64,000 nucleotides of DNA. Origin: Rhodospirillaceae bacterium. Lineage in GTDB: Bacteria > Pseudomonadota > Gammaproteobacteria > Steroidobacterales > Rariloculaceae. Both the position numbers and the translations under genes were made by a program. Below are positions 31,913-49,172 of the stretch, piece by piece. How positions within the stretch are numbered: the first letter of the stretch is position 1; each line of letters begins with the position of its first letter. The stretch spans positions 7,729-71,728 of the forward strand of contig JAHEKF010000007.1 in the NCBI GenBank assembly GCA_024638465.1, read 5' to 3'. The notes under the pieces were generated by a model. It searched no databases, was not told where the DNA came from, and was given only the letters and a program-made list of their open reading frames with translations.

Positions 31913-32923
31913 ATGACGCTGAAGCAACTGAAATATCTGATCGGAATCGTCGACAGCGGTCTCAACATCACCTCGGCCGCGGAGCGGCTCTACACGAGCC
32001 AGCCCGGTATCAGTAAGCAGCTCAAGCAGCTCGAAGCCGAGCTCGGCATGCAGCTCTTTACCCGCAAGGGCAAAAGCCTCTCGGCGATCACCCCGGCCGG
32101 CCGCGAGGTCATCGACCGGGCGCGCAAGATTCTTCGCGAGGTCGACAACATCTCGAGTCTCGCCAGCGATCTGACCGGCGAGCAGGAAGGGCGCCTCTCG
32201 ATTGCGACAACGCACACGCAGGCCCGTTACGTTCTGCCCGACGTCATTCGCGAGTTCAATGAGCGTTATCCGAAGGTCGATCTCGAGTTGCACCAGGGAA
32301 CATCGGAGCAAATCGCGGAGCTGGTGAATACGGATCAGGTCGATTTCGCGATCGCTACCGGATCGCAAAAGTTATTCTCGAATCTGACGCTGTTACCGAT
32401 CTATCACTGGGATCGCATCATGCTGGTGCCGAACGATCATCCGCTGGCACGCGAGAAGAATCCCGTAGATCTGAAAATGCTGTCGGCTTACCCGCTCGTA
32501 ACCTATGTCTTCAGCCTCACCGGTGAGTCCTCGTTCAAGCGCGCTTTTGCCGATGAGGGCCTCGAGCCACGCGTCGTGTTTACGGCACGTGACGCGGATA
32601 TCATCAAGACCTATGTACGCATGGGTATGGGTGTCGGCGTTATCGCCTCGATGGCTTATGAGTGCAAGGATCAGGAAGATCTGAAAGCCATCGACGCGAC
32701 AGGGCTGTTTCCGCGTGTCACGACCTGGCTCGGCTTCCCGAAAGACATGGTCTTGCGAAGCTTCATGATCGACTTCATCCACCTGCTGGCGCCGCATTAT
32801 TCGCGCCGTTTGATCAGCGACGTCGCGAACATGGATACGGACGAGCAGCTCGAGGAGCTGCTCAAGGACGTCAAGCTGCCGGTTCGTGGGGGCTGCGAAG
32901 AGGATGAGGCAGCCGCGGCGTAA
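31913..32923 (+). CDS. cysB: LysR-family regulator of the CysB/Cbl type
   Basis: MTLKQLKYLIGIVDSGLNITSAAERLYTSQPGISKQLKQLE closely follows the CysB HTH region. It is divergent from cysG-cysK. Confidence 0.8.
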   Translation: MTLKQLKYLIGIVDSGLNITSAAERLYTSQPGISKQLKQLEAELGMQLFTRKGKSLSAITPAGREVIDRARKILREVDNISSLASDLTGEQEGRLSIATTHTQARYVLPDVIREFNERYPKVDLELHQGTSEQIAELVNTDQVDFAIATGSQKLFSNLTLLPIYHWDRIMLVPNDHPLAREKNPVDLKMLSAYPLVTYVFSLTGESSFKRAFADEGLEPRVVFTARDADIIKTYVRMGMGVGVIASMAYECKDQEDLKAIDATGLFPRVTTWLGFPKDMVLRSFMIDFIHLLAPHYSRRLISDVANMDTDEQLEELLKDVKLPVRGGCEEDEAAAA

Positions 32924-32959: not shown

Positions 32960-33215
32960 GCCGTCTCGAATGCCAGCTCAAACAACGCCCTGTCACGGTC
33001 AATCCGGTCGAGCCCGACGCCGCGGTGACCGACGAGGGAGGGTCCGGAGTGTCCGTCGAGCGTCGTAGACGAGGAGCGTGCCATGGACGGCAGTTGAGCG
33101 ACGAGGACACGATTCGAGGCGAGACACGGACGTCGAGCCGAGATTAAGTGAGACGGACACTCCGGACCCGACCATCAACTGATACGCCGACCGGCCCCTT
33201 GGGACTCCGCGTACC
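32960..33215 (+). repeat. Composite intergenic repeat (copy A): arm / 94-nt core / arm, filling the cysB-cysH convergent spacer
   Basis: The left arm (32986-33057) is the reverse complement of 45600-45668. The core (33057-33150) matches 22147-22240. ggtccggagtgtccgtc at 33041 and gacggacactccggacc at 33152 form an inverted repeat around the core. The ccggccccttgggactccgc box is also present at 45561. Confidence 0.85.
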
Positions 33216-33220
33216 GTCCG

Positions 33221-34000
33221 CTAGAGTTCCGACAGGTCGATCTCGTGTAGTCCGCATTCGCGCTTCAGCCCGTTGAAGCGCGTCAGCTCTTCGTCGCCGA
33301 CATCCTGCAACGGCCGCGTACTGTGGCGATCGCCGATCGATACATAGCCGTCCTTCCAAAGCGGGTGGTAGGGGAGGTCGTGCGCTCTGAGGTAGCGATG
33401 TACATCGCGATCGCTCCAGTCGGCGATGGCGTGCACCTTCCAGCGCTCGCCGGCACGGGCGAGATAAGGGATCTCGGCGCGCGATTCGGTCTGGTTGCGG
33501 CGTAATCCTGCGAACCAGGTTCCGGCGTCGAGCTCTCGCAGTGCGCGGCGCATCGGTTCGACCTTATTTTCTTCGTTGTAGGCGTCAATGCCATTGATGC
33601 CGTGCTGCCAGCGCTGCCCGAAGCGTGCTTCCTGCCACGCGGGTGAGATACGGCTGCGATAAACCTGAAGATTGAGCTGGAGCCGCTCGGTCAACTCGTC
33701 GACGAAGCGGTAGGTTTCGGTAAACAGATACCCGGTGTCGACGAGCACAACCGGAATGTTCGAGGCGACCTGAGTTACGAGGTGCAACGAGACGGCAGCT
33801 TGTGCGCCGAAACTCGAGCTCAACACATGATTACCCGGCAAATGCGCCAGCGACCACTCAACCCGCTCGTGCGGGGTAAGGTCCGCGAACACGCGATTGC
33901 AATGCGCCAGCGCCGCTTCCCGCGTCGTCGCCTCATCGCAGACGCTCGGTGCCTGGAGGCGGGTGTCGCGGTTGTCCTGGTTGTCGATAACGGCGTTCAT
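33221..34000 (-). CDS. cysH: Phosphoadenosine-phosphosulfate (PAPS/APS) reductase
   Basis: [12 protein letters not shown] and the C-terminal KRECGLHE motif. ATG at 34000 (MNAVIDN) chosen; the upstream track extension was ignored. Confidence 0.85.
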
Positions 34001-34232
34001 CGAGTGCGTGGTTCGTGTTCGGGATGCGATCCCTGCGCAGCGCGCTCCAGTCGGGAGGCATACCCTAGTGGACCGGACTGCCGCCGTGAACGGCCGAGTC
34101 GTCATAGCCGTATGCAGCGATGAAATAACTTAGAAGCTGACGGCAGACGCTAATGCCGCGACGAAATTACGTACGACCGTGAAGCTGTTGCCAGGTCCGT
34201 CGCGGTCTCGCGACCGGTTCCTTCGGACTCCG

Positions 34233-35597
34233 CTATAGCGACAGAATTTCGGCGCCGACGCGTTCGCCGGATTCCATCGCGCCTTCCATGCCGCGCGAGA
34301 CGCGGCCGAGGTGCTCGCCGCAGAAGCGGATCCTGGCGTGCGGATCGCCCATGACGGCCGCGAAGCGCGTGATCTGTCCGGGGCGGAAATAGGCCCAGCC
34401 GCCGCGCGCACAGGGGTCCGTGCCCCAGGACTGCATGCCGAGAAACTCGAGCTGGTCTTTGGCGGCCGGGCGCACGGCTTCGATCTCGGCGATGACGCGC
34501 TTGCCGGCGCCCGCCGCTCCCAGCGCGTCGAGCACAGCCGCATTGGGTCCCAGTGTCCAGGCCGTGAAACTGGTTACCTCATTCGGATCGTCGCCGTTGC
34601 GTGCAGCTGCGACCATGCCGGCGACACCGTCGGTAAAGAGACTCGGTGCATAGCCGTCGGCCTCCCAGAAGTTCGATTTATGACGAAAGTAGACCTGCGT
34701 CATCGGCTGTGCCGGCAACGATGAGACGGCTTCAGCCTGCAAGCCTTCGAGCGGCGGATCGATCGCGATGTCGCGAAGCACGCCGAAAGGCAATGAGCAG
34801 ACGACATGCTGAGCGCGATAGCGCGTTCCATCTTCACAGCGCAAGGTTGCGCCAGCCCCGTCATTCTCGATTGCAGTCACCTGTTTACCGAATTCGACCG
34901 GCTTTTCTAGCGCGTCGGCCATCGCCTGCGGGATGCGCGCAACGCCGTTACGTGCCGTATAACCGAGCACGCCTTCGGGCGCGAAGCGTCGTTGCGCGAC
35001 CGAGAATGCCGCGCGAAAGAACAGCAACAGCGCGGAGACATCGCGCGCATCTTCGCCGAAGCTCACGTTCATTCCGTATGCGAGCTTCACGCCGGCGTCG
35101 TCGAAACCGAGCTGCTCCAGCCAATCGCGTACCGATATGTCGTACTGCGCCGCGTCGGGCTCGAGCCATGCTCCCGGTTCGGACAGCGGGTTCTCGCGGA
35201 CCGTCAGCTGCCGGTGGTAGGCCCACGGCATGATCGGCTTATCGTCGTCGGGGAACCGATTGGCAGGATGATGGGGCCAATCCGCCTGGCGAATGATCTT
35301 GCCGTCGAGTACAAGTTCCTGTTCGCGGAAAAACTGCAACATGGGTGTTACGTCGATGAGTTCGACGCCATGGCGCTGCGCGGTGCCGATAATTCGCGTG
35401 TAGCCAGCGCCGATGTAGGTGCCTCCGGCTTCCTTGTTGCTACCGAGCTGCTGCATCGAGCGGACGCGGCCGCCGACGCGCTGCTGCGCTTCGATGACCT
35501 GCACGTCTGCGCCGCCGGCCTGCAGATCGAGCGCGGCCGCCAGTCCTGCAAGACCCGCGCCGATGACGACGACTTCGTGCTTGCGCACATCGGCCAT
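34233..35597 (-). CDS. FAD-dependent oxidoreductase of the amine-oxidase/protoporphyrinogen-oxidase superfamily, in the hemY position
   Basis: VVVIGAGLAGLAAA...VIEAQQRVGGR dinucleotide fold and a C-terminal FCGEH...GMEGAMESGERVGAEI. Its ATG directly abuts the ferrochelatase stop codon. Confidence 0.75.
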   Translation of the reverse strand: MADVRKHEVVVIGAGLAGLAAALDLQAGGADVQVIEAQQRVGGRVRSMQQLGSNKEAGGTYIGAGYTRIIGTAQRHGVELIDVTPMLQFFREQELVLDGKIIRQADWPHHPANRFPDDDKPIMPWAYHRQLTVRENPLSEPGAWLEPDAAQYDISVRDWLEQLGFDDAGVKLAYGMNVSFGEDARDVSALLLFFRAAFSVAQRRFAPEGVLGYTARNGVARIPQAMADALEKPVEFGKQVTAIENDGAGATLRCEDGTRYRAQHVVCSLPFGVLRDIAIDPPLEGLQAEAVSSLPAQPMTQVYFRHKSNFWEADGYAPSLFTDGVAGMVAAARNGDDPNEVTSFTAWTLGPNAAVLDALGAAGAGKRVIAEIEAVRPAAKDQLEFLGMQSWGTDPCARGGWAYFRPGQITRFAAVMGDPHARIRFCGEHLGRVSRGMEGAMESGERVGAEILSL

Positions 35598-36653
35598 TCA
35601 GGCGTCGTCCGATCCGCACAGTGCGGGCCTGGGCTCGCCGGGACGCCCGGACAGACAGCATCCGCGAGGGCAGACGTCATGGCTCGGACCGAGTCTCCCC
35701 AGTGAGCGTTTTTCAGTACCCGGCTGCAGACGCTCCTGGATGAGTTCACGCACCATGCCGATGTAGGCGGGATGCGTGCCGACTGTGTTCGCGCGAACCA
35801 ATGCCAGGCCAACTTCGTTGGCGGTTTCCTGCGCTTCGACGTCGAGGTCGAGCACGACCTCCATGTGATCGCACACAAAGCCGATCGGCACCATGACCAT
35901 TGACTTCGAACCGCCTTCGCTCATGCCCCTGATCACGTCATTGATGTCGGGTTCGAGCCACGGCACGCCGTAAGACGCATTGTTACTCTGGTAACAGAGC
36001 GACCAGCTGTCGCGGCCCACTTCCCCGGCAACAAGGCGGCAGGCCTCCGCGAGTTGCTCGACGTAGTTCGCGTTTTTGGCCATCGGCACCGGCAGGCTAT
36101 GCGCCGTGAACATCAGCGGTGCATCGGCGCGCAATTCCTCCGGCAAATCGGCAAGCGCATCGACGACGCGATCGGCCATTGCCGAGATGAAGCCCGGATG
36201 GTTATAGCCGAGTCTCAGTTTGTCGATTGCTGGCGGGTTGTCGAGATCGGCACAGGCGTCGTAAAGATCCTCGCGGTATTTCCGGCAGCCGCTGTAAGAA
36301 CTGAACGTACTGGTCACGTGCGCGAGCGCACGCGAGATGCCCGCGCGCTGCATTTCGGCCAGGGTGTCGGCCAGCATCGGATGCCAGTTACGGTTACCCC
36401 AGTAAATCGGCAGATCGATATCGTGGGCCACGAGTTCGGCCTCGAGTGCGTCGATAAACTTGCGCGTTTCGCCGTTGATCGGGCTTACACCACCGAAGCG
36501 CTGATAGCGGCGCGCGATACCTTGCTTCGCCTCGGGCTTTACCGGCAGTCCTTTTAGCACGTTGTCGAGAAACGGCATGACGTCGTCCGGGCCCTCCGGT
36601 CCGCCGAAGGAGACGATCAGTAATGCGTCGTAAGGTCGCGTGTCGTCGCTCAT
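35598..36653 (-). CDS. hemH: Ferrochelatase, actinobacterial-like type with a Cys-rich C-terminal extension
   Basis: LLIVSFGGPEGPDDVMPFLDNV, FGGVSPING, YWGNRNWHP, FTAHSLP, VPWLEPD, PIGFVCDHMEVVLDLD. Also SGCRKY plus the C-terminal VCPRGCC...LC. Confidence 0.9.
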   Translation of the reverse strand: MSDDTRPYDALLIVSFGGPEGPDDVMPFLDNVLKGLPVKPEAKQGIARRYQRFGGVSPINGETRKFIDALEAELVAHDIDLPIYWGNRNWHPMLADTLAEMQRAGISRALAHVTSTFSSYSGCRKYREDLYDACADLDNPPAIDKLRLGYNHPGFISAMADRVVDALADLPEELRADAPLMFTAHSLPVPMAKNANYVEQLAEACRLVAGEVGRDSWSLCYQSNNASYGVPWLEPDINDVIRGMSEGGSKSMVMVPIGFVCDHMEVVLDLDVEAQETANEVGLALVRANTVGTHPAYIGMVRELIQERLQPGTEKRSLGRLGPSHDVCPRGCCLSGRPGEPRPALCGSDDA

Positions 36654-37364
36654 CTACAGTGCGCTCTGCCAGGCGACCTTGCCGACGAAGAAGGGGCCCA
36701 GGCTGTCGAGATATTGCGAGGTCTGCTCCGTCTTGCGCATCTCCTGCACGACGGCCGACAACGGAAACAGATTCGGTCCGAGCAGGCCGATGATGAAGTC
36801 ATTGTCGTGCTTGTCGAGACCGTGGCATGCAAGTCGCACGTCGGCTGCGAGACCGGCGAAGCCATAGCGTTTCGCCAGCGTGCCATGCTCGCCGAGAATC
36901 TGCCGTTGCCTGGCTTCGGGCAGTGTTTGAAACGACTTCGCCCTCTGCAACGGATACCAGACCGCCCATGGGAAGTCGGGATTCAGGGTCTTGAAGCGCG
37001 GTTTCTCGAATAGCGTCTCCTCGAGATCGGGTTCGTAGCCGATCGAGTAGGTTCGTCCGAGCATGTCGAATTCCGGCTTGTGCGTGAACGCGGAAAACGG
37101 CTCGGCGTTGAACGCGTCGCGCAGACTGCCAACGAAATGATCGGGATCCTCGGCAAGTGCGATAACGCCGATACCACGCGGGTCGTTGGCATCGACGTAG
37201 AGCGCTCCTTCGATGCCGGCGCCCGCGAGCGCCTGTGCTGCCGCGGCAGGTTCGGTACAGCCTGTAAATGCGGTGAACTTCATGAACAGGCGTCGATCGA
37301 GGGACGTCTGTTTGCCGTCAGCGGTGCCTTTCTCGCTGAGGTCGAGTGCCGGTACGTCGTTCAT
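36654..37364 (-). CDS. Chlorite-dismutase-family protein, probably coproheme decarboxylase (HemQ/ChdC)
   Basis: WYPLQR...LPEARQRQILGEHGTLAKRY...MRKTEQTSQYLDSLGPFFVGK aligns with the C-terminal half of HemQ-type proteins as I recall them. It is wedged between hemE and hemH with spacers of 0-1 nt. Confidence 0.7.
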   Translation of the reverse strand: MNDVPALDLSEKGTADGKQTSLDRRLFMKFTAFTGCTEPAAAAQALAGAGIEGALYVDANDPRGIGVIALAEDPDHFVGSLRDAFNAEPFSAFTHKPEFDMLGRTYSIGYEPDLEETLFEKPRFKTLNPDFPWAVWYPLQRAKSFQTLPEARQRQILGEHGTLAKRYGFAGLAADVRLACHGLDKHDNDFIIGLLGPNLFPLSAVVQEMRKTEQTSQYLDSLGPFFVGKVAWQSAL

Positions 37365-37365
37365 C

Positions 37366-38415
37366 TCACGCTCCCGTCCGGGCGGGCCGGCCGCTTGCCT
37401 GATCGCCCTCGTTGTGAACCGCTTCGATCATCGCCTCGACGCTCTCGATGGGCGTCTGCGGAAGGATGCCGTGCCCGAGATTAACGATGTGGCCAACCGG
37501 ATCGACGGTGTCGAGCAGGTTTCGCGTAGCGGTCCGGGTCGTGTCGTAACCGCCAAGCAGGATCGCCGGATCGATATTGCCCTGGACGGCCTTGCGGTCC
37601 TGATACTCGTTCTGTATGTCGCCGAGATCTACGCGCCAGTCGCAGGCCAGCACTTCGGCGGGCAGCATCGCGTATGACTCGACGAGATGCGGCGCGTTCT
37701 GCACGAACAGGATTCGCGGCACGCCCGCGTTACCGAGTGCTTCGAGTATCGTCTCGAGGTGCGGTCGAATCATGCGATCCCAGTCGGGCAGCGACAGGAC
37801 GCCGGCCCAGGAGTCGAAAATCTGTACCGCGTCGGCTCCCGCACGCGCCTGATTGATGAGGTAGTGCACCATGAGGTCGGCGAGTTTCGCGAGCAGAGCA
37901 TCGAGTGCCTCGGGTTGCGTTGCGGCGAACGCACGCAACGTCGGAAAGTCCTTCTTGCCGCGGCCTTCGACGAGGTAGGCCGCCAGCGTCCACGGCGCGC
38001 CGCAGAAACCGAGTAGCGCCGTTTCGTCGGGTAGTTCCGCGCGAACCTGTTTCAGCGCCGTCATCACTTCCGGCGCTATCTCGTCGGGATGACAGGAACG
38101 CAGCGCATCGACCCCGGCCTGGTCACGGATCGGGTTCTCGACGACGGGGCCGGGATCGAAGTCGAACTCGACACCGATAGCAGGTAACGGACTCATGATG
38201 TCGGCGAATACGATCGCGGCATCGAGAGGAAATCGCTTGATCGGCATGAGTGTGACTTCTGTTGACAGGTCCGCGGAGCCTGCAAGTTCCTTGAACGCAT
38301 ATTTTTTTCGCAACTCGCGGTATTCGGGCAGGTATCTTCCGGCCTGGCGCATGATCCACAAAGGACGGCGCGGCGTCGGCTCGCGTGCGATGGTCTGTAG
38401 CAGTAAGCGGTTCAT
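37366..38415 (-). CDS. hemE: Uroporphyrinogen decarboxylase
   Basis: PLWIMRQAGRYLPEYR signature. The ATG overlaps the response-regulator stop (ATGA). Confidence 0.9.
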   Translation of the reverse strand: MNRLLLQTIAREPTPRRPLWIMRQAGRYLPEYRELRKKYAFKELAGSADLSTEVTLMPIKRFPLDAAIVFADIMSPLPAIGVEFDFDPGPVVENPIRDQAGVDALRSCHPDEIAPEVMTALKQVRAELPDETALLGFCGAPWTLAAYLVEGRGKKDFPTLRAFAATQPEALDALLAKLADLMVHYLINQARAGADAVQIFDSWAGVLSLPDWDRMIRPHLETILEALGNAGVPRILFVQNAPHLVESYAMLPAEVLACDWRVDLGDIQNEYQDRKAVQGNIDPAILLGGYDTTRTATRNLLDTVDPVGHIVNLGHGILPQTPIESVEAMIEAVHNEGDQASGRPARTGA

Positions 38416-39122
38416 TCGGAAGGCGTCTCCGGTTTTCTCGTAAATCGGTACCCCACGCCGCGTACGGTGTGGAAGTGTTCAGGCGCTTCGGGATTGCGTT
38501 CGAAGCGGCGGCGCAGGCGCACGATGAAGTTGTCGATCGTCCGTGTGGAAGGAAACACCTCGTAGCCCCAGACTTTGTCGAGAATGTCTTCGCGCGGCAC
38601 GATCGTGCCTTGTTCCTCGGCCAGGACCTTGAGGATCATCGCTTCCTTATGTGTCAGCGCGTGGTCGACTCCGTCCCAGGCTGTCGCGTGATAGGTCTGG
38701 AAGTCGATTTCGTTGCCCGCAAATTTCAGGTTCTCTGCCGCCTCGCTGTACCAGACGCTGCGGCGCAGAATCGCGGCAACACGCAGAAGCAGTTCCTTGA
38801 GATGAAATGGCTTCGCCAGGTAGTCGTCGCCGCCGGCCTCGAGCCCGCGGATACGATCCTCGGGGCCGCCTTTGACCGTCAGGAACAGCACCGGCGTCTG
38901 CAGCCCGGCCTTGCGGATCTCTTCGCAGACCTCCAGCCCATCGAGCTTGGGCATCATGACATCGAGCAAAATCAGATCGAACGCGCGGTCGCGCGCCAGC
39001 GCAAGACCTTGCTCGCCATCGTGCGCGATCTCGGTGTCGTAGCCCTCGGCCTGCAGGTTTTCGCGAATGCCTGCGGCGAGATGCTCCTCGTCGTCGACGA
39101 CGAGTATCCGTGGCGTTGCCAA
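38412..39122 (-). CDS. OmpR/PhoB-type response regulator
   Basis: ILVVDDE...LILLDVMMPKLDG...DDYLAKPF receiver and a winged-helix C-terminus (RGVGYRF). The TTG start immediately follows the kinase TAG stop. Confidence 0.9.
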   Translation of the reverse strand: MATPRILVVDDEEHLAAGIRENLQAEGYDTEIAHDGEQGLALARDRAFDLILLDVMMPKLDGLEVCEEIRKAGLQTPVLFLTVKGGPEDRIRGLEAGGDDYLAKPFHLKELLLRVAAILRRSVWYSEAAENLKFAGNEIDFQTYHATAWDGVDHALTHKEAMILKVLAEEQGTIVPREDILDKVWGYEVFPSTRTIDNFIVRLRRRFERNPEAPEHFHTVRGVGYRFTRKPETPSE

Positions 39123-40202
39123 CTACGCCCCTCCCGGCCAGGACACCGTGACGGTCGCGCCGCGCCCGGGACCATCACTGCTTGCGGTGATCGTCGCATT
39201 GGACAGCTCGACGAGACGGCGCACGATGTACAACCCCAGGCCCGTACCGGGTGTCGACCGTCTGAGCTCGTCCCCGAGCCGGTAGAATTTTTCGAAGATG
39301 ATCGCGGCGTCTTCGGGCGGAAAGCCGAGACCATCGTCGTGGACCGCGAACTCGACGCGATCGCCCAACGCGCGAGCTTCGAGCCGGACGCTTTTTCCAT
39401 CGCCGGCGATACAGGCTTTGACGGCGTTGTCGAGCAGATTTCTCAATACCGTTTCGATCGTCGTGCGGTCGGCTTTTACGCTCAGGTTTTCCGGCACGTT
39501 CAGACTGATTTCGATATCGTAATGTGCGGCACGATCTTCGAGTTCCTTTACGCATGCTGTGGCGAGCGTCGCGAGATCAAGCGTTTCGGGCTCGAGCTCC
39601 ATGCGCCCTTCCTCGAGACGTGTCGTGTCGAGCAGGTTGTCTACCATCCGCAACAGCCGTTCACCGTCGTCGAGGATCCGCTGCCCGAGTCTCTGCGTAT
39701 CGGGATCGTTGTCGCGAACGAGCAGCGTCTCCGCGGCGAGACGGATGCTCGCGAGCGGACTCTTGAATTCGTGCGATACGGCGGCCAGGAAGTTTTGCTG
39801 ACGCGCGCGAAGATCCGCGTCGTGACGGATCGTACGCGTCAGAATCGTCATACCGACGAGCAGTACAACAAGAAAGAAGCCTCCCTCCCAGACGAGCCGG
39901 TTGATCCGGGAAGACGTCTGATCGTCGAGAACGGCCAGTACCGCATCGTTTACAAAGGCGGTCCCGAGCTCGGGCGAGATGTCGAGATGCGGCAGAAGGC
40001 CTTCGAGAGCATCCGGGTTATCGGAGTAGAACGCAGTAACAGCCGCTGCGTCGGCGTTATAGAGCGAGAGGAGCTGATCCTGTGTCGAACGTGTGAACGT
40101 AACGCTCTCGGAGATCCACCAAGCCACCTGTGCGAGTGACAGAATCAGTAGCGCGAGAAACCCGAGCTGCAACGCCTTGGTCGGGTCACGTCTGAGAACC
40201 AT
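39123..40202 (-). CDS. Sensor histidine kinase (two TM segments, HisKA, HATPase_c)
   Basis: H-box AVSHEFKSPLASI, N-box LRNLLDNAVKA, and G-boxes HDDGLGF / GTGLGL. ATG at 40202 (MVLRRDPTK) overlaps the hemL 3' end by 17 nt. Confidence 0.85.
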   Translation of the reverse strand: MVLRRDPTKALQLGFLALLILSLAQVAWWISESVTFTRSTQDQLLSLYNADAAAVTAFYSDNPDALEGLLPHLDISPELGTAFVNDAVLAVLDDQTSSRINRLVWEGGFFLVVLLVGMTILTRTIRHDADLRARQQNFLAAVSHEFKSPLASIRLAAETLLVRDNDPDTQRLGQRILDDGERLLRMVDNLLDTTRLEEGRMELEPETLDLATLATACVKELEDRAAHYDIEISLNVPENLSVKADRTTIETVLRNLLDNAVKACIAGDGKSVRLEARALGDRVEFAVHDDGLGFPPEDAAIIFEKFYRLGDELRRSTPGTGLGLYIVRRLVELSNATITASSDGPGRGATVTVSWPGGA

Positions 40203-41511
40203 GAGCCTCTCCCGTTTGACTGGCGATATCGTTGAGCACGTGCCCGAGTGTAGCGGCGAATTGGTCCAGGCTTTCGCGGCTGTGGGCCAGAGAGATGAAA
40301 CCGACTTCATAAGCCGACGGTGCAAGCGCGATGCCGCGCGCCAACAGGGCATGAAAGATACCGGCATAGGTGTCGCCGGTTTCGGCAGCTATTGCTTCGG
40401 CCGTGCGCGGCGCCGTCAGGGTGTGGAGTGCGATCCAGAATATCGAGCCGACTCGCGCGAGCACGGCGTCAACGGGCGCCGCCTCGAGAACCGGGTTCAG
40501 CAGTATCTCCAGGTACTGTCCGCGTGCCTCGAGCTGTTGCCAGCCTTCCTCCTCCTCGAGGACCTTGAGCGTCGTCAGACCGGCGGTCATCGCGACCGGG
40601 TTACCGGAAAGCGTGCCGGCCTGATAGACGCCGCCCTGCGGCGCGAGCTTGCGCATGATGTCTTTTGACGACGCGAACGCACCCACGGGCATGCCGCCGC
40701 CAATGACTTTGCCGAACGTCGCGATGTCCGGCGTAATGCCGTAATGGGCCGCTGCGCCACCGGCACCCAGACGGAACCCCGTGATCACTTCATCGAAAAT
40801 CAGGAGTGCGCCATGCTTCGAGCAAAGCTCGCGCAGGAGCTCGAGATAGTCGGGCCGCTGAATCAGCAGGCCGTTGTTAGCGGGAACCGGTTCTATGATG
40901 ACGGCTGCGATACGCGCGCCTTCCGTGCGAAACAGGTCATCGATCGCCTCGTCGTCGTCCAGCGGCAACACGCGTGTCAGATTGGTGAAATTCTCCGGCA
41001 CGCCGTCGGACGACGGTCGACCGAAAGTCGCGAGTCCCGACCCTGCGGCGACGAGTAGCGAGTCCGAGTGGCCGTGATAACAGCCGGAGAACTTGACGAT
41101 GAGATCGCGTCCCGTAGCGCCGCGCGCGAGCCGGATCGCGCTCATGACGGCTTCCGTGCCGGACGAGACGAAGCGCACCTGCTCGATGCCGGGGTAAGCT
41201 GCGACGACGCGTTCGGCGAGCTCGATCTCCGCGCGGCACGGGGCACCGAAAGAAGTGCCGCGTTTCACGGCTGCACTCACTGCCTTCACGACTTCCGGAT
41301 GAGCGTGGCCGAGAATCAGCGGTCCCCAGGAGCCGACGAAGTCGAGGTAGGTGCGGCCGTCCTCGTCGGTCACTTCCGCGCCGTTGGCCGAACGAATTAC
41401 GCGCGGCGTGCCGCCGACCGCACCGAACGCGCGCACCGGCGAGCTGACGCCACCCGGCAGAAGCGTCTGTGCTTTCGCGAACCAGTCTTCCGAACCTTTG
41501 GTCACAGCCAT
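40186..41511 (-). CDS. hemL: Glutamate-1-semialdehyde 2,1-aminomutase
   Basis: [27 protein letters not shown] and FDEVITGFR; the PLP-binding Lys lies in FGKVIGGG. Confidence 0.9.
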
Positions 41512-42506
41512 TTCCCTTGCAGCGCGTCACGCGCGTGATAGGTAATGATCTGGTCGGCGCCGGCGCGTGCGATCGCGTAGAGATTCTCGCGAACGACTCG
41601 CGCCTCGTCGATCCAGCCGTTCGCAGCTGCGGCCTTGACCATCGCGTACTCGCCGGAGACGTTGTATGCCGACAGCGGCAACGTCGTCTCTGCTCTTACG
41701 GCCTGGATAACATCGAGGTACGCAAGTGCGGGTTTGACCATCAGCATGTCTGCGCCTTCATCCTCGTCCAGCTCGGCTTCGCGAATCGCCTCGAGAACGT
41801 TACGCGCGTCCATCTGGTAGCTCTGCCGATCGCCTTGTTGCGGCGCCGAGTCGGCCGCATCGCGAAATGGCCCGTAGTACGCCGACGCGTACTTCACGGC
41901 ATAGGCGAGCAATGCGACATTGTCGAAACTTGCATCGTCCAGTCCGTCGCGGATAGCGGCGATGCGGCCGTCCATCATGTCGGACGGTGCGACGACGTCG
42001 GCGCCGGCTTCGGCGTGACTCAGCGCCGTTCTGACGATCGGCTCGAGCGACGGATCGTTGACGACTCGCCCGTCCTCGACGAGGCCGCAATGGCCGTGGT
42101 CGGTATAGGCACAGAGGCAGACGTCCGTCACGACGATGAGGTCGTCACCGAATTCCTGCTTCAGGCGCCGCACGGCTTTTTGAACTGCGCCTTGCTCGTC
42201 CCAGGCCAGCTCGCCGTCGGCTGTCTTCGTCGCATCGTCCTCCGGGTGGCCGAACAGCAGCGCCGCGCGGATTCCGAGCTCTAGATCGGCCCCGACTTCC
42301 GCCACGAGATTGTCGCGTCCCAGCTGAGCGAGGCCCGGCAACGATGGAATGGGCTCCGCCGCTTTTTCGGCCGGAAGCACGAAGCGCGGCACGACAAACT
42401 GCGACGCGGCGATATGCGTTTCCGCGACGAGATCGCGCATGGTCTGAGTCTGGCGCAGACGCCGCGGCCGCATACGCCCCGGTGTCGTCACTTTCAATTC
42501 GCGCAT
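41502..42506 (-). CDS. hemB: Porphobilinogen synthase (5-aminolevulinate dehydratase)
   Basis: [43 protein letters not shown]. Confidence 0.9.
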
Positions 42507-43228
42507 TGCATCGCCTCCATGAGTCCATCCAGACCGGGACGCTGCGCCTGTCCCGTCACTTCGAGTCCGGCGGCGCGCGCCGCCGCATTCGTGGCCGGAC
42601 CGATCGTAAAGATCGCCGCCGGCTTGTCCAGTTCGACCTGATTCGTCAGACCTTCGACGGCTGACGGGCTGGCAAGAAAGATCGTGTCCGCACCGAGGGC
42701 AGTGAGCGTGAATTTGGGCTCGACGGTCGCGGCCGGGATCGTGCGATAGACATCGAGCCGGACACAGTCAGCGCCGGCGGCATTCAGCGAGTCCTCGATT
42801 GTCGTGCCCGCATTCTCCGCGACCGCCAGCACGACATGTTTGCCGCCCGCGTCCAGTCGAACCTCGAGTGCCTGTGCGAGCGATGCCGCCGTGCCCGCTT
42901 CGCTGACGAGGTCGGCGCGACCGAAAGCGATGACGGCGGCATCGGCGGTCGCGGGACCGACGACTGCGATCCGGGTCTTCGCAGCTATCTCCGCAGAACT
43001 CAGCTCGGCAAACGCTGCAACGCCGCGTTTCGATGTGAACACGAGCCAGTCGGCATCAGGCAGCAGTTCCGCGATACGGTTGCGAAGCGCATCGGAGTCG
43101 ACCGGCACGCATCGAATACATGGCAGAACGACCGCACGGGCACCGGCCGCTTCAAGCCGGCTGGCCCACTGCGCGCTGTCATCGTCGCTGCGGGTGACGA
43201 GCACTATCTTTCCGCTTGCGGAAGTCAT
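42494..43228 (-). CDS. hemD: Uroporphyrinogen-III synthase
   Basis: 245 aa starting from [13 protein letters not shown], with the length and pattern of the HEM4 family. ATG 43228 overlaps the hemC stop (ATGA). The track extension to 43498 was rejected. Confidence 0.75.
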
Positions 43229-44139
43229 GACTCGGCGAGCGCTTCCCACGCGATATCGACCACCGCATGCGGATTCTTGTCGTGGGCTCTGGTGCCGATG
43301 AGTCGGCCGTCGCGTTCCAGCATCGCGACGAGCTGCAGCATGCCGTCGGGCGCCTCCGTGCAGTAGGCACCGAAGGCGACATCGCATCCTCCCTCGACGC
43401 GCATCAGCAATGCGCGTTCGACGGCAACACAGGTCTCCGTCGGGCCGTGGGCAATGATGCTCAGGGTGTCGACGATATGCCCATCCGCCGCGCGGCACTG
43501 CAGCGCAATTGCGCCTTGTGCCGGAGCAGGAATGAAGACTTCGGGGTCGAGTCGTACGACGATGTGGTCGCCAAGCCCGAGATCGGGGCGGTCGTCGAGC
43601 ATGGAGTCCCGCAGGCGATTGAGCCCCGCGGCGGCCAGTATCACGCCGTCGTAGCCATCGCCGACCTTACCGACACGTGTCGGCACGTTGCCGCGGAGTG
43701 GTTGAACGTCGACGTCGGCGCGCAGGTGTTTGAGCCAGGCCTGGCGGCGCGCGGACGAGGTACCGACTTTGGCGCCGTCCGCGATCGGCAGCGGGCCGGA
43801 CGCTTCGCTATGCGAGTCGCGCTGCATGACCAGCACATCGGCGGCGTCCTCGCGCCGCGTTATCGAGGCTAGCGTGAGCGCTTCCGGCGACTGGGTCGGC
43901 AGGTCCTTGAACGAGTGCACGGCGATGTCGGCAGTATCGTCCAACAGTGCCTGCTCGATCTCGCGAACGAACACTCCCGTCGCTCCGATAGCGCCGAACG
44001 TCGGTGCGTCGGATTTATCGCCGCTGGTTGTGACAATGACGAGTTCGGTCTCGTGGCCAAGTTCAGTGAGCTCGTTCGCAACGAACGTGGCCTGAGTTCT
44101 CGCGAGATGCGAACCGCGAGTGGCGATACGCAGTTTCAT
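43225..44139 (-). CDS. hemC: Hydroxymethylbilane synthase (porphobilinogen deaminase)
   Basis: LRIATRGS.LA..Q, VHS.KDLP and RGNV.TR motifs. Confidence 0.9.
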   Translation of the reverse strand: MKLRIATRGSHLARTQATFVANELTELGHETELVIVTTSGDKSDAPTFGAIGATGVFVREIEQALLDDTADIAVHSFKDLPTQSPEALTLASITRREDAADVLVMQRDSHSEASGPLPIADGAKVGTSSARRQAWLKHLRADVDVQPLRGNVPTRVGKVGDGYDGVILAAAGLNRLRDSMLDDRPDLGLGDHIVVRLDPEVFIPAPAQGAIALQCRAADGHIVDTLSIIAHGPTETCVAVERALLMRVEGGCDVAFGAYCTEAPDGMLQLVAMLERDGRLIGTRAHDKNPHAVVDIAWEALAES

Positions 44140-45470
44140 GAGCCCGATGCCCGTTTCGGTAGCGACGCTTCATTGAGCGCCTGGCGCAGCTCATCCGCGA
44201 ACTCGGGTTCGAGACCGTCGAGAAAAGCATCGAGCGATCCGTCGGGCCCGTGGTGCAGCAGTCCGCGAAGTCCGAGGCAGGGAATATGCGCGAAACGACG
44301 CGCGAGTACTTCACTCCATTGCTCGATCGCCACGCGCTCGTCATCGCCGAGCCCTTTGAGATCTTTCTTCAACAGACGCCTGACGCCCTCCTGCGCCGTG
44401 TTGCGATAACGCTGTTGCAGCGCGCCGAACAGCGGACCATAAAGTCGCTCGGCGAAGCGGTCGTGAAGGCGCAACAGCGCGTCGTCCACGAGTTCGCGGG
44501 CCTGCGCAGCCTCGACGAGGCGGGCCGCGCGGTTGCGCTCAGCTTCGAGAGTGATCTGATCCATGCCGATGCGCAGCATATCGAGACGCGCGCAGGCGTC
44601 GGCATCTATGTCGGCCGGGATCGCCATGTCGATGAGCAATGGCGGCAGTTGCGACAGCGTGCGCGCCGCGAGCCGTTCGAGAACCGGCGCATCGATGACC
44701 GGGCCCCTGGAACCCGTCGACGACAACAACGCCTCGATGGCGGGCGGGTCGGCAATAAAGTCGTCAAGGGACATATGCCCGGCGCCGTATTCGCTGGCGC
44801 GTCCGGCGGCTTTTGCGGCCGTGCGATTGACGAACAATAGCTCGAAACCGGCTTTGGCGAGCGACTGCGCGGCTCGCTCGGTCATCGGTGACACGCCGAT
44901 CAGCGCGACTCGCCCCGGTGTGCGCGCCAGTCGGCTGCGAATGTGCGCTACGGCGACTTCGGCCAGCGATACACGTCCGGTAGCGAGCCCGGTCTCGCCG
45001 CGAACGACTGCGGCGATCTTCAGGGCTTCCTCGAACAACAGGTCGAGGTGCGGACCGCTCAGTCCTGCCGAGCGGGCGCGCTCATGACACTGCCGAACCT
45101 GGCCCGTGATCTCGACTTCACCCACCGCGGCGGAGTCGAGTCCGGCGGCAACGAGAAACAGGTGTTCGCAGGCGCCCTCGCCCTGCCAGGCGCGCAGCGC
45201 TCGCTCGGCTTCACCGTTGGCCGCGGGCGCGCCGGTCAACAGCTCGTAGACGAGCGGGCGCAGATCGCGAGCCGGTGTCATCGCCGTGCGCGTGAAAATG
45301 AGCTCGACGCGGTTGCAGGTGGCGAGGTAGGCGAGTTCGGCGAGGCCGGCGCGCGATGCGAAGTCGCCGAGCTTCCCGGCCAGGCCATCTTCGGGCAGCG
45401 CGAAGCGTTCCAGTCCTTCGCTGCCGCTCTGGCGCCAGGAGATTCCGACGACGTTGAGGTCTTCGAGCAT
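44136..45470 (-). CDS. hemA: Glutamyl-tRNA reductase
   Basis: LATCNRVELI, GE.EI.GQV and IGVSPM (NADPH fold) motifs. It is the first gene of the cluster. Confidence 0.9.
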   Translation of the reverse strand: MLEDLNVVGISWRQSGSEGLERFALPEDGLAGKLGDFASRAGLAELAYLATCNRVELIFTRTAMTPARDLRPLVYELLTGAPAANGEAERALRAWQGEGACEHLFLVAAGLDSAAVGEVEITGQVRQCHERARSAGLSGPHLDLLFEEALKIAAVVRGETGLATGRVSLAEVAVAHIRSRLARTPGRVALIGVSPMTERAAQSLAKAGFELLFVNRTAAKAAGRASEYGAGHMSLDDFIADPPAIEALLSSTGSRGPVIDAPVLERLAARTLSQLPPLLIDMAIPADIDADACARLDMLRIGMDQITLEAERNRAARLVEAAQARELVDDALLRLHDRFAERLYGPLFGALQQRYRNTAQEGVRRLLKKDLKGLGDDERVAIEQWSEVLARRFAHIPCLGLRGLLHHGPDGSLDAFLDGLEPEFADELRQALNEASLPKRASGS

Positions 45471-45560
45471 CCGCCAAGGGTAAGACTCCCGCCGCGGCGA
45501 TTGTCACGGCCGTGTCATCGCAACGTCCCCGTGACCGAAGCTGTGACGCGTAGCGCGCGG

Positions 45561-45675
45561 CCGGTCCCTTGGGACTCGGCTGATATCTTTCCGGACGGAC
45601 TCTCCGGGCCCGACCTCACCCGTCACCGCGCCGTCGGGCTCGACCGGATTGACCGTGACAGGGCGCTGTTCGAAT
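45561..45675 (+). repeat. Copy C of the intergenic repeat arms (no core), immediately upstream of hemA
   Basis: ccggtcccttgggactcggc box, ggacggactctccgggcccgacc, then cgtcaccgcgccgtcgggctcgaccggattgaccgtgacagggcg, which is the reverse complement of 32986-33030. Confidence 0.85.
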
Positions 45676-45686
45676 CCGACGCTCGG

Positions 45687-46748
45687 CTAACCGTTGGGAT
45701 ACGCGGCGTCGTACGCCCGTGTGACGATGCGCTCCATCTCGGCGCGATGAGACGCGATGGAGCGCGCGAGTTCGATCTGGCTGCGCGTCCGCGCTTCGTT
45801 GTGCTCGCTCGCGCTCGCAAAACGCGCCTGGTCCCAGCCGAAGTAGTTCTCGTTGAGCGCGTCTGCGCAGAAGCGCGCCGCGAGTTCGACCGTGATCGTG
45901 TAGGTTGCGCCCGGAATCCCGCGCCGCTCGGCTTCCGTCAGGAAGTCGCTCGTCTCGCGCGCGTAGCCCGCGATCGCTGCCTCGAAGAACGGCAGCGAGA
46001 ACTCGGCGCCCGGCTCGTCTTCCGGACGGGGATTGCACCACGAGCGAAACGCGTCCCCGAGCTCGAGTACGACCGGCATGCGGCTAATGGTGTCGAGGTC
46101 GATAAGGCAGATCGCGGCGTCGGTCTCCGGATCGAACAGGAGGTTCGAGATCTTCGGGTCACCGTGGACGACGCGGTCGGGTTGGTCGCCCGGCTCCGCG
46201 ATGTCATTAGCCAGCGTAAGTACCTGCGCCGCGAGTGGCTCGATCACGGAGTAGCGCTGATGGTCTTTTTTCCCGAGCAATGCCTCGAGCAGATTCTTCA
46301 GGTGTTTCGCGGTGTCATGCACGCCGAGCCGCGCCGTCGAGAACTCGTGGTCGATGCCGCTGACGACGCGATGAAATCTTCCGAGTAGCGCGCCCGCTTC
46401 TTCGGCTTGCTTCGCATTCTCCAGGGCGTCATAGCTCGCACCCTGAATGTAGCTCAGTTGCCGCCAGACGAAACCGTCGTCGTCTTCGATGGTCGTCGCG
46501 CCGGTCGCGGCCGGTATGAGCACGGGAGTCACGATGCCGGCCGCTTCCAGATACTTCGTGACCGCGTCGATATCGTCGTTTACCGCGCGTGCGAACAGTG
46601 GATTGACGCGCTGTAGTACACGCGCTTTACCGGGTGCGGGAACAGCGATCCAGGTCGTGTTGATCAGTCCGGAGGGTATTAGCTCGAGAGAAGCCGATTC
46701 CAGACCGAGTGCCTTGAGTACCTGAGCGCTGGGATTCGGGGCGGCCAT
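45687..46748 (-). CDS. Aminoglycoside-phosphotransferase-fold (APH/homoserine-kinase-II-like) kinase
   Basis: VVHGDPKISNLLF (HxDxxxxN catalytic loop) and LIDLD. ATG at 46748 chosen (MAAPNPSAQ). Confidence 0.7.
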   Translation of the reverse strand: MAAPNPSAQVLKALGLESASLELIPSGLINTTWIAVPAPGKARVLQRVNPLFARAVNDDIDAVTKYLEAAGIVTPVLIPAATGATTIEDDDGFVWRQLSYIQGASYDALENAKQAEEAGALLGRFHRVVSGIDHEFSTARLGVHDTAKHLKNLLEALLGKKDHQRYSVIEPLAAQVLTLANDIAEPGDQPDRVVHGDPKISNLLFDPETDAAICLIDLDTISRMPVVLELGDAFRSWCNPRPEDEPGAEFSLPFFEAAIAGYARETSDFLTEAERRGIPGATYTITVELAARFCADALNENYFGWDQARFASASEHNEARTRSQIELARSIASHRAEMERIVTRAYDAAYPNG

Positions 46749-46774
46749 TGCCGCCGCAGTATAGCCTCTTGCCG

Positions 46775-47509
46775 TTAGTCGAAGCGGCTCAGGATTTCGC
46801 GTGTGGCGCTGGAACAGGCGCCATCGGAGATTACGCCGGCTCGCTGCAATCGATAGTGCTCGTGCATTTCTTTGCGCAGGTAGATTGGCCAGTCGTCCGT
46901 GTTCTGCGCTTGCGCTGCGGTTATCGCCTGACAGAGTTCGTCGGCGATCGTGCGGCAGGTCCTGAACGTTACGACCGATCCCCTGAGACGCAGGACTTCG
47001 CACTTGCCGGTTGCCGAGAAAAAGTGGGTTTGTTCGTAGGTGAGATAGAGGAACAGCATGAAAGAAACTATCGAGCCGCTGCCGAGCACGATCGACACCG
47101 AGCGAAACAACTGATCGTAAGGCAGTACGAAGCTGGTGATCGCCGCTATCGCGGTTGCAAGCAGCAGGCCTGCTGCTGCCTTTAACGAGCGTCTCGCAAC
47201 GATTCGCGTGACCTTCGACGCCGGCTTCAGGTATCGCAGCGCGAGATAGGTATCCTGGACCAGGTGCTTGTTCTTCCAGGCACGGACTTTAAGGAAGCCC
47301 TCTTCGTAGAGTTCGAAGAGGTAGCGCGTTCCGTGCGACCAGTCCGACATCTGATACGTCGCCCGAACCGTATTGAGTTCGACGGCGCCAGTAAATTCTG
47401 CGTTCTGGATTTCGGTCGGGTCACTCGAAGTGATCGAGATGTGCTCGGAATCCGCTTCCAGGTCATGGATCGAGCGTGCGAAGTCTTCCGCGACAGTCTG
47501 GTCGGACAT
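46775..47509 (-). CDS. Hypothetical membrane protein (two central TM segments)
   Basis: A 244-aa ORF with a clean frame, 26 nt upstream of the kinase gene. I recognise no family. Confidence 0.45.
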   Translation of the reverse strand: MSDQTVAEDFARSIHDLEADSEHISITSSDPTEIQNAEFTGAVELNTVRATYQMSDWSHGTRYLFELYEEGFLKVRAWKNKHLVQDTYLALRYLKPASKVTRIVARRSLKAAAGLLLATAIAAITSFVLPYDQLFRSVSIVLGSGSIVSFMLFLYLTYEQTHFFSATGKCEVLRLRGSVVTFRTCRTIADELCQAITAAQAQNTDDWPIYLRKEMHEHYRLQRAGVISDGACSSATREILSRFD

Positions 47510-49147: not shown

Positions 49148-49172
49148 GGCTGTTTCCGGGGGCAGTCCGCTG

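Follow-up and report, generated by a model that had tools for sequence, protein, structure and literature searches.

A probable coproporphyrin-type haem operon with its own two-component system in an uncultured gammaproteobacterial lineage

Positions 34233–45470 of a 64-kb stretch of DNA (64,000 nucleotides of contig JAHEKF010000007.1 from the Rhodospirillaceae-named assembly GCA_024638465.1; hereafter the window) carry eleven open reading frames (ORFs), all on the minus strand, in the order hemA-hemC-hemD-hemB-hemL-histidine kinase-response regulator-hemE-Cld-like-hemH-flavoprotein, where Cld denotes the chlorite dismutase family. We conclude, from gene content and from what can be read in the terminal enzymes, that this locus is very probably a haem operon of the coproporphyrin-dependent (CPD) type. 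The CPD route has been described for Firmicutes and Actinobacteria, and HemQ is said to be largely absent from Proteobacteria, which are described as using the protoporphyrin route (PMC5095920, PMC10740692, PMC10991733, PMC10427985). Among diderms, the CPD route or its coproheme decarboxylase (ChdC) has already been reported in Acidobacteria, Planctomycetes and Deinococcus (PMC5095920, PMC10991733). In the literature on CPD and ChdC in Proteobacteria, Gammaproteobacteria included, we found no description of such a cluster; nor did the literature search return a report of this operon or of any haem cluster with a monoamine oxidase (MAO)-type oxidase, while an earlier mention of the Cld clade described below is possible. 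The present analysis adds a candidate operator and the wider distribution of the cluster.

The fuller model, which we consider reasonably probable, is that of a self-contained, self-regulated haem b operon of the CPD type on the chromosome of an uncultured sediment gammaproteobacterium. The trunk steps of HemA, HemL, HemB, HemC, HemD and HemE are shown by homology: HemA and HemL are predicted to convert Glu-tRNA to 5-aminolevulinate, HemB, HemC and HemD to carry it on to uroporphyrinogen III, and HemE to turn uroporphyrinogen III into coproporphyrinogen III. The MAO-type flavin adenine dinucleotide (FAD) protein would then oxidize coproporphyrinogen III to coproporphyrin III, probably using O2 and releasing H2O2 as its family does, and a ferrochelatase with a Cys-containing tail would insert Fe2+ to give coproheme. 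In the last step the Cld-family protein would decarboxylate propionates 2 and 4 to vinyls in an H2O2-driven reaction that yields haem b, with Tyr137, the proximal His160 and possibly an invariant Asp175/Arg177 pair as the proposed residues. Translation of all eleven genes would be coupled through overlapping stop and start codons, and the embedded kinase, by way of its phosphorylated OmpR-family regulator, would act at a PhoB-box-like GTGACA-N5-GTGACA element in the -35 position; the kinase's signal might be haem or porphyrin, iron, or the oxygen or redox state.

A CPD route had been put forward for this DNA in a prediction made from its sequence alone. The overall route and the gene list of that original prediction stand, on Pfam and NCBIfam matches, on similarity to the coproporphyrin ferrochelatase structure 28wn and on gene context, whereas two of the terminal enzymes had to be redefined: the Cld-family protein belongs to a distinct ChdC-like clade, and the oxidase is of the MAO type rather than HemY.

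Ferrochelatase and Cld-family protein

The ORFs of the window were scanned with Pfam and NCBIfam, and every gene assignment in the operon was confirmed, two of the family matches being weak: that of the Cld-family protein (PF06778, 45 bits) and that of the flavoprotein to TIGR00562 (42 bits). For distribution, the alignment of the Cld family was scanned against one genome per GTDB species, which gave at least 593 confirmed related stretches, and the eleven proteins of the window were compared with 81 loci by tblastn; the taxon names used for these loci are those of the record titles.

The ferrochelatase gene (35598–36653, minus strand; PF00762, 257 bits) encodes a protein whose best match in the PDB is 28wn, ‘Coproporphyrin III ferrochelatase’, at 231 bits. 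Scores against the coproporphyrin ferrochelatases (CpfC) of Bacillus and Listeria are 117–144 bits, as compared with ∼100 bits for human PpfC and 30 bits for Escherichia coli HemH, to which the protein is 21% identical over just 140 residues. Its proximal position, in the motif SFGGPEG, holds a Phe and aligns with position 13 of the Bacillus subtilis enzyme and with SFGGPEG of 28wn; the proximal residue is Tyr in CpfC of Firmicutes, Phe in actinobacterial CpfC and Met in human PpfC (PMC10427985). An internal motif, YSGCRKY, has its Cys in common with 28wn (YSGCRxY), and the C-terminal tail carries the pattern C-x3-CC-x(12–13)-C, with x13 in the window protein; nearly all proteobacterial orthologues keep the internal motif and have the tail in the form HDxCPxxCCLSGRPG...LCG.

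Actinobacterial CpfC has a C-terminal [2Fe-2S] cluster (PMC7340540, PMC8529089), and the Cys motifs of the window protein suggest a candidate [2Fe-2S] site of this kind. The internal YSGC(R)xY Cys, the C-terminal Cys cluster and the proximal Phe are all common to the window protein and 28wn; the two differ in that the former is proteobacterial and in that the Cys residues of its C-x3-CC-x12/13-C pattern are candidate cluster ligands only. The earlier description of this ferrochelatase as actinobacterial in type is borne out by the score against 28wn, the proximal Phe and the Cys tail, and the protein appears to be coproporphyrin-ferrochelatase-like.

The neighbouring Cld-family gene (36654–37364, minus strand) encodes a putative ChdC-like coproheme decarboxylase of a non-canonical clade. 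The protein scores above the PF06778 gathering score (45.2 against 25 bits), with a match limited to residues 124–229, and below the cut-offs of the curated HemQ equivalogs (NF042928 HemQ_actino, 32.2 against 235 bits; NF008913, 26.5 against 253 bits); the clade member in locus L068 has no NCBIfam model match at E <= 1e-5. The original prediction had tied its pathway to a place for this protein within HemQ/ChdC. Curated HemQ membership fails on these scores, while a ChdC-like function survives by way of residues, profile and context.

The clade to which the protein belongs comprises 5,429 clusters at 90% identity and 598 at 50% identity (E <= 1e-3). Compared with the PDB, its profile matches ChdC/HemQ-like chains, namely Thermus 1vdh, the Corynebacterium, Geobacillus and Listeria ChdCs and Thermoplasma Ta0507, with E-values of 1.5e-9 to 2e-5, against 0.025–0.75 for the chlorite dismutase of Nitrospira; a functional chlorite dismutase was dropped as the best reading because the profile lies far nearer the ChdC structures. 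Invariant in the clade alignment are Y137, R141, H160, D175, R177 and R210, the last within an EMR motif. Y137 (in WYPL) aligns with the catalytic Tyr of ChdC, H160 (in GEHG) with its proximal His, and R141 with Lys151 of the Listeria enzyme; in the characterised ChdCs we take the catalytic Tyr to be Y147 in Listeria and Y135 in Corynebacterium, the proximal His to be Listeria H174, and the Listeria Lys to be numbered K151. The Asp175/Arg177 pair might, speculatively, act in H2O2 activation in the manner of a DyP-type pair.

The strongest functional evidence comes from gene context. The same Cld clade occurs in the order hemB-Cld-hemE-hemH-hemY in loci titled Gaiellaceae/Actinomycetota and Caldilineales/Anaerolineae, where it appears to occupy the role of HemQ in otherwise canonical hemE-hemH-hemY clusters. 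We infer that the window protein is a ChdC-like coproheme decarboxylase of a distinct clade. A search of the PLSDB plasmid database with it gave no match. Cld-domain fusions were seen in the 50%-clustered library (P0244, P0247, P0272, P0251 and P0362), with aldo/keto reductase, PCP_red, Clp_N and radical SAM partners; because none of these partners is a haem enzyme, the fusions give no Rosetta-stone support for a function of the Cld domain.

These two proteins bear most directly on the alternative that the cells follow the protoporphyrin route, with HemF or HemN and a protoporphyrinogen oxidase encoded elsewhere, or with the MAO-type protein itself as the protoporphyrinogen oxidase, and with the Cld-family protein as a haem-binding accessory such as a chaperone, peroxidase or storage protein. 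In its favour, Proteobacteria reportedly make haem almost solely by the protoporphyrin pathway (PMC10740692, PMC5095920), the curated HemQ families do not include the Cld-family protein, and the analysis covered no more than the 64-kb window. Nevertheless, this alternative leaves unexplained a ferrochelatase that is so much closer to a coproporphyrin ferrochelatase than to E. coli HemH, a catalytic Tyr and proximal His that are invariant in the Cld clade, and the substitution of that clade for HemQ in canonical hemE-hemH-hemY clusters. Moreover, neither HemF, HemN and HemG (by tblastn) nor HemJ (by Pfam) was found among the window ORFs scanned, and the E. coli HemF, HemN and HemG queries had no match in the 81 related loci. 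We consider a protoporphyrin route improbable.

The flavoprotein encoded after hemH

Eight of the nine steps of the CPD route are assigned to eight genes of the operon, and two further genes encode the two-component system, which leaves one step, the oxidation of coproporphyrinogen, and one FAD oxidase. Because the sole unassigned enzyme thus meets the sole unfilled step, and does so in clusters that make 5-aminolevulinate by the C5 route as well as in those that use the Shemin route, we propose the flavoprotein (34233–35597, minus strand) as a non-orthologous CgoX. That it is a coproporphyrinogen III oxidase replacing HemY/CgoX is a reading towards which the balance of the comparative evidence tips only slightly.

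By sequence and structure the protein belongs to the monoamine/putrescine-oxidase family. PF01593, a family that covers protoporphyrinogen oxidases as well, matches residues 16–452 with 180 bits, and full-length alignments are obtained with MAO-B (E = 1.5e-28), putrescine oxidase, cyclohexylamine oxidase and L-amino-acid oxidase. An AlphaFold2 model built from a 42-sequence alignment reached a pLDDT of 92; the best 50 Foldseek matches to it in the PDB are all amine or amino-acid oxidases or close relatives, with template-modelling (TM) scores of 0.74–0.80, and none of these 50 is annotated as a protoporphyrinogen oxidase or CgoX. Orthology with HemY/CgoX was rejected: the protein reaches 42.3 bits on the protoporphyrinogen-oxidase model TIGR00562, the cut-off of which is 97.85, in residues 6–77 only (the N-terminal dinucleotide-binding part), and a BLASTP comparison with canonical HemY from L068 finds a match of just 84 residues, at E = 0.03. 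The true HemY proteins of L066 and L068, by comparison, score 270–297 bits on the same model. The protein had earlier been described as a flavoprotein in the HemY position, and its place after hemH and its membership of the amine-oxidase superfamily hold good, whereas BLASTP and Foldseek show that it is not a HemY/CgoX orthologue.

The position is strictly kept. In all 19 of the proteobacterial loci with enough sequence, which represent three different cluster architectures (a–c, described below), the flavoprotein gene directly follows hemH. A canonical HemY gene follows hemH in 11 other loci, ten of them of architecture (d) together with L078, and is never found alongside the MAO-type gene. 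There is precedent for such a replacement: CgoN (YtpQ) is an oxygen-independent alternative coproporphyrinogen III oxidase of Bacillaceae (PMC10965808), likewise a non-orthologous FAD enzyme at the CgoX step and likewise first spotted by gene context. CgoN belongs to the unrelated YtpQ family, whereas the window protein has a MAO-type fold and is probably O2-dependent.

The alternative is that the pathway is of the CPD type and the flavoprotein is a true amine or small-molecule oxidase, either supplying H2O2 to the ChdC-like enzyme or unrelated to it, with coproporphyrinogen oxidized by an enzyme encoded elsewhere or non-enzymatically. The end-to-end alignments with MAO-B, putrescine oxidase and L-amino-acid oxidase, on which the model also superposes best, are what this alternative would predict, and ChdC requires H2O2 (PMC10427985). 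The catalytic hallmarks of MAO-type enzymes, as distinct from the PF01593 family and the fold, appear to be lacking. In MAO-B, Lys296 bridges a water molecule to flavin N5, and Tyr398 and Tyr435 form an aromatic cage. By alignment at ∼24% identity, the equivalents of Lys296 and Tyr435 are Gln301 and Gly436, both invariant, that of Cys397 is Gly, and that of Tyr398 is Trp401 or Gly. More generally, MAO-A and MAO-B, Rhodococcus putrescine oxidase and cyclohexylamine oxidase resemble the window protein in family, end-to-end alignment and fold; the window protein differs from these flavin amine oxidases in its low identity to them (20–25%), in the Gln301/Gly/Gly436 substitutions, in having no C-terminal membrane anchor and in always being encoded in a haem operon.

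The closest plasmid-borne relatives in PLSDB, at <=38% identity, lie in non-haem contexts on Novosphingobium megaplasmids. They have a catabolic-looking neighbourhood, which favours the amine-oxidase alternative, and they share Gly436 and Trp401 with the window protein. A lost aromatic cage thus does not set the haem-linked subfamily apart, and was dropped as subfamily-specific evidence; the haem-linked proteins, with >=57% identity, rather form a subfamily of a broader amine-oxidase-like family, since the Novosphingobium homologues share these residues without hem context. The two megaplasmid genes lie at 7671–9263 of L087, where the ORF starts ∼85 amino acids before the domain match, and at 8001–9353 of L088.

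What argues against a true amine oxidase, apart from the substituted Lys296, Cys397 and Tyr435 equivalents, is the gene's strict place after hemH in three architectures and its mutual exclusion there with canonical HemY. The cluster, moreover, contains no gene that would supply an amine or remove an aldehyde, and the alternative would leave an operon that is complete in other respects short of the gene for one step. We regard a true amine oxidase in this position as unlikely, and retain the assignment to coproporphyrinogen III oxidation as slightly the better founded.

Several observations tell against the CPD operon as we read it. The Cld-family protein scores below the curated HemQ cut-offs, and its alignment with known ChdCs is confined to the C-terminal half; Asp175 stands at the position of the distal Arg of Cld, which in functional chlorite dismutases comes 13 residues after the proximal His, and of Gln187 of Listeria ChdC, with Arg177 two residues on, and the chemistry there is uncertain, the alignment being too remote to fix the register. 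The flavoprotein is by sequence and fold an amine oxidase, not a porphyrinogen oxidase; its nearest cultured relatives (36–38% identity, on the Novosphingobium megaplasmids) lie beside a gene for a TonB-dependent receptor or near one for an aldehyde dehydrogenase, without adjacent hem genes, so that Gly436 and Trp401 are found in homologues outside any haem context. Canonical hemF/N, hemG/J/Y or a second hemH outside the window may carry the flux, and the proposed link between operator and regulator is one of co-occurrence.

Operon layout and regulation

The upstream part of the operon encodes the trunk of the pathway, beginning with hemA (gtrR) at 44136–45470, whose divergent glutamyl-tRNA reductase scores 103 bits on PF05201 and 190 bits on TIGR01035, under the cut-off of 209. 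It is followed by hemC at 43225–44139 (hydroxymethylbilane synthase; TIGR00212, 263 bits), which overlaps hemA by ATGA, and by hemD at 42494–43228 (uroporphyrinogen-III synthase of 244 amino acids, starting MTSASG; PF02602, 147 bits), which overlaps hemC in the same way. A longer ORF for hemD with a GTG start (to 43498) was rejected as an artefact; the PF02602 match begins only at its residue 110. The porphobilinogen synthase gene hemB (41502–42506; NF006762, 462 bits) encodes a Cys-rich motif that we take to be of the Zn type, and hemL (40186–41511; NF000818, 580 bits) encodes glutamate-1-semialdehyde 2,1-aminomutase. The sensor histidine kinase gene (39123–40202; PF00512, 61 bits; PF02518, 92 bits) overlaps hemL by 17 nt, a long ATG-initiated ORF at this place being an artefact, and the gene for the OmpR/PhoB-family response regulator (38412–39122; PF00072, 106 bits; PF00486, 80 bits) has a TTG start with GGAGG 7 nt upstream and an ATGA overlap with hemE, which encodes uroporphyrinogen decarboxylase (37366–38415; TIGR01464, 378 bits). 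All of these genes are on the minus strand, as are the Cld, hemH and flavoprotein genes that complete the operon.

In gene order, the computed junctions are -4, -4, -13, -10, -17, 0, -4, +1, 0 and 0 nt, negative values being overlaps. The genes, order and junctions first listed for this DNA agree exactly with the recomputed coordinates, and these overlaps and spacers also bear out the translational coupling claimed with them. Since the same order is kept in independent genomes at 50–85% protein identity, the eleven-gene arrangement is not a product of chance.

The closest familiar counterpart is the CPD pathway of Firmicutes and Actinobacteria, as in the hemAXCDBL, hemEHY and hemQ genes of B. 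subtilis. The trunk order hemA-C-D-B-L is nearly the same, and is likewise followed by hemE, a CpfC-like ferrochelatase, a Cld-family protein with the Tyr and His of ChdC, and an FAD oxidase in the HemY position. The window cluster differs in forming one coupled unit, in having no hemX, in the two-component system placed between hemL and hemE, and in its gammaproteobacterial host; its Cld-family protein fails the HemQ models and its oxidase is of the MAO type, not HemY.

The histidine kinase has two hydrophobic segments, read from the sequence as predicted transmembrane helices, around a loop of ∼95 amino acids, followed by HisKA and HATPase domains; neither HAMP nor any other recognisable sensor domain was detected in it with Pfam. 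Upstream of hemA, at the -35 position of its promoter, lies a tandem direct repeat, ATGACAcggccGTGACA (45502–45518, minus strand), of the form RTGACA-N5-RTGACA with an 11-bp period, which is a candidate operator. When the DNA upstream of hemA was aligned for the window and ten orthologous clusters, RTGACA-N5-RTGACA was the one conserved block in otherwise unalignable sequence. In the 64-kb window GTGACA-N5-GTGACA has a single match, just upstream of hemA, and the repeat matches exactly once each, again just upstream of hemA, in L001, L004, L005, L007, L008, L011, L012, L014 and L062; the copy in L016 has one mismatch. It is thus present in all 11 clusters (the window and 10 loci) in which the two-component system and a hemA upstream region occur together, and absent from the other 76 loci, including clusters without the two-component system.

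This pattern suggests that control of the operon is exerted at the GTGACA repeat by the OmpR-family regulator that the cluster itself encodes. In operators of PhoB/OmpR-family regulators, two hexamers one helical turn apart take the place of the -35 element, and the Pho box of PhoB offers the same likeness here: an OmpR-family regulator and two hexamers with an 11-bp period in place of the -35 element. A -10-like hexamer, TACCCT (45477–45482, minus strand), can be read 19 nt beyond the repeat, with the hemA ATG a further 6 nt on, and TACCCT or TAACCT is kept at the corresponding place in the window, L001, L004, L007 and L008. Generic sigma-70 and terminator scans of 33000–47600 gave counts at or below chance and did not call the TACCCT hexamer. 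With this spacing, the hemA mRNA may be leaderless or near-leaderless.

Two-component control of haem synthesis has a parallel in Corynebacterium. HrrA and ChrA are NarL-type regulators, and so belong to a family other than that of the window regulator; nor are they encoded in the haem operon. The HrrSA and ChrSA systems exert haem-responsive control over gtrR and the terminal CPD genes (PMC10991733). Together, the embedded two-component system and the candidate operator of the window would offer a model of how a diderm might tie haem synthesis to a sensed signal.

Distribution and chromosomal surroundings

The related loci fall into five arrangements. In the first, (a), the full eleven-gene order is found at 50–85% identity in L001–L014, which are metagenome-assembled genomes (MAGs) titled as uncultured Gammaproteobacteria, Ca. 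Rariloculaceae and, in some cases, Rhodospirillaceae. In (b), the Pseudomonadales-titled L016 and the Gammaproteobacteria-titled L062 have hemA-kinase-regulator-hemE-Cld-hemH-FAD, and in the Pseudomonadales-titled L015 just hemE-Cld-hemH-FAD was detected. The Alphaproteobacteria-titled loci L017, L019, L023, L024 and L030 make up (c), with hemC-D-B-hemE-Cld-hemH-FAD. In L017, a closed MAG (4182–5393, minus strand, and 5956–13178), a gene for 5-aminolevulinate synthase (ALAS; TIGR01821, 647 bits) lies divergently next to hemC, giving a Shemin version of the cluster without hemA or hemL; the make-up of the cluster here follows the host's route to 5-aminolevulinate, since ALAS stands in for hemA and hemL. 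Closed genomes that carry the cluster include OZ244860.1, OZ241971.1, OY969712.1, OZ241893.1, OZ244069.1 and ERZ25766727 ctg362369.

Arrangement (d), hemA-C-D-B-Cld-hemE-hemH-X-hemL, is that of 14 loci titled Caldilineales, Promineifilaceae, Anaerolineae, Gaiellaceae or Actinomycetota, in which gene X is canonical HemY (TIGR00562, 270–297 bits). These clusters, of which L068 and L066 are examples, resemble that of the window in the Cld clade (55–57% identity) and in their trunk genes and order; they differ in having a short ferrochelatase (31% identity) without the Cys tail, canonical HemY, no two-component system and no GTGACA repeat. In (e), which takes in Acidobacteriota, Dadabacteria, Desulfobacterota and others, the Cld gene is without hem neighbours, and in many of the Acidobacteriota and Dadabacteria loci it stands alone. 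A separate case is L078 (10001–13062), from the Gammaproteobacteria-labelled MAG OFTM122, in which the same Cld clade lies beside a short ferrochelatase and a canonical HemY that is 43% identical to that of L066; both types of oxidase therefore accompany this Cld clade in Gammaproteobacteria-labelled MAGs. The cluster had been called unusual, which holds in relation to the literature on Proteobacteria and does not hold within its own lineage, where it is common in metagenomes rather than a one-off.

Taken at its widest, the proposal would have three parts. The MAO-type flavoprotein would be a third family of coproporphyrinogen III oxidases, after HemY/CgoX and YtpQ/CgoN, recruited from amine oxidases and displacing HemY; the pathway would be the only haem route in these Gamma- and Alphaproteobacteria, run from one operon under a two-component system of its own that acts through a PhoB-box-like operator; and in many diderm phyla the chief coproheme decarboxylase would come from the Cld clade, perhaps with a DyP-like Asp/Arg pair activating H2O2. 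That all three hold together is a tentative proposition, to which we give somewhat less than an even chance. The protoporphyrin/coproporphyrin split has been used in reconstructing the evolution of haem synthesis and in arguing that, as drug targets, CgoX, CpfC and ChdC are specific to Gram-positive bacteria. A conserved proteobacterial operon of the CPD type would show that the terminal module is portable, combining with either route to 5-aminolevulinate (hemA/hemL or ALAS) and with different oxidases, and the MAO-type protein, if it is the oxidase, would extend a textbook pathway by a new enzyme family. The finding would also correct a possible misreading of sediment MAGs, in which the labels ‘chlorite dismutase family’ and ‘flavin monoamine oxidase family’, carried by thousands of environmental genes, could be taken for (per)chlorate or amine metabolism.

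The distribution data also bear on whether the cluster could be a second, conditional tetrapyrrole pathway, horizontally acquired, that adds to a native haem pathway or yields, instead of bulk haem b, a modified tetrapyrrole. A two-component system and operator of its own would suit such a pathway, and like terminal modules occur in MAGs titled both Alpha- and Gammaproteobacteria. The trunk enzymes are as distant from those of E. coli (26–47% identity; HemA 26%, HemC 42%, HemB 46%, HemL 47%, HemE 38%) as they are from their counterparts in the Caldilineales/Anaerolineae- and Gaiellaceae/Actinomycetota-titled loci (29–56%), distances that would fit either an ancient foreign origin or a host that branches deeply, and the GC content of the cluster is 0.635 as against 0.59–0.61 in its flanks. 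Against this, the slot between an SrkA-like kinase gene and cysH is kept in several MAGs at 50–85% identity, implying long vertical residence; ORF scans of the window found no mobility genes near the cluster; and there are no tailoring enzymes, the gene set being exactly what haem b needs. A second pathway of this kind seems very unlikely, and a bulk haem b operon of the CPD type continues to be the reading we favour.

The flanks are conserved in related MAGs. On one side lie cysH (33221–34105), CysB, a cysK-like gene and the sirohaem synthase gene cysG, and on the other the SrkA-like kinase and a DUF945 protein; both the SrkA-like gene and cysH are kept in L005, L011, L012 and L014, and cysH in L006 and L013. 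A mobile island was ruled out by the absence of mobility genes, the flanks kept in related MAGs and the small size of the GC excess; conserved flanks and missing mobility genes point instead to long chromosomal residence rather than to a recent island. The proteobacterial background claimed earlier for the window is supported by CysB (428 bits on NF009326), by the DUF945/YihF-like and SrkA-like genes, by an alginate-export porin and by the nearest homologues, which are in MAGs named Gammaproteobacteria or Ca. Rariloculaceae. A search of sequencing runs found the sequence in sediment metagenome DNA runs only, and in no transcript runs; Rfam and tRNA scans of the window gave no matches.

The haem operon abuts a cysteine/sirohaem group, formed by a gene for a cysK-like pyridoxal-phosphate enzyme (29238–30191), cysG (30232–31668), cysB (31829–32923, plus strand) and cysH, so that two branches consuming uroporphyrinogen III adjoin each other. 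Downstream of the flavoprotein gene, cysH follows on the same strand after a 127-nt gap with no convincing terminator; the folding of this spacer is no stronger than that of shuffled sequence (z = -0.2). On the other side, the SrkA-like kinase (APH family) and the DUF945 (YihF-like) protein are encoded near each other at 45687–49204, an arrangement resembling E. coli srkA-dsbA-yihF, which in E. coli lies between hemG and hemN.

Further from the operon, five ORFs with DUF6152 domains occur in the 64 kb (9769–10275, 10276–11367, 51664–52071, 56915–57889 and 59672–60766), two of them bracketing genes for a sulfite-oxidase-like molybdoenzyme (57886–59148) and a cytochrome c (59135–59659); in L001, DUF6152 genes also lie close to the haem cluster. 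Paralogous proteins of ∼757 amino acids with DUF5916 are encoded at 23691–25970 and 26865–29135, one of them also with CBM9, and an AhpC/TSA peroxiredoxin-like gene (26069–26641) lies between them. A trehalose row consists of genes for trehalose-phosphatase (13217–13963), a GH15 glycoside hydrolase (13923–15770) and a GT20 trehalose-6-phosphate synthase (15767–17203).

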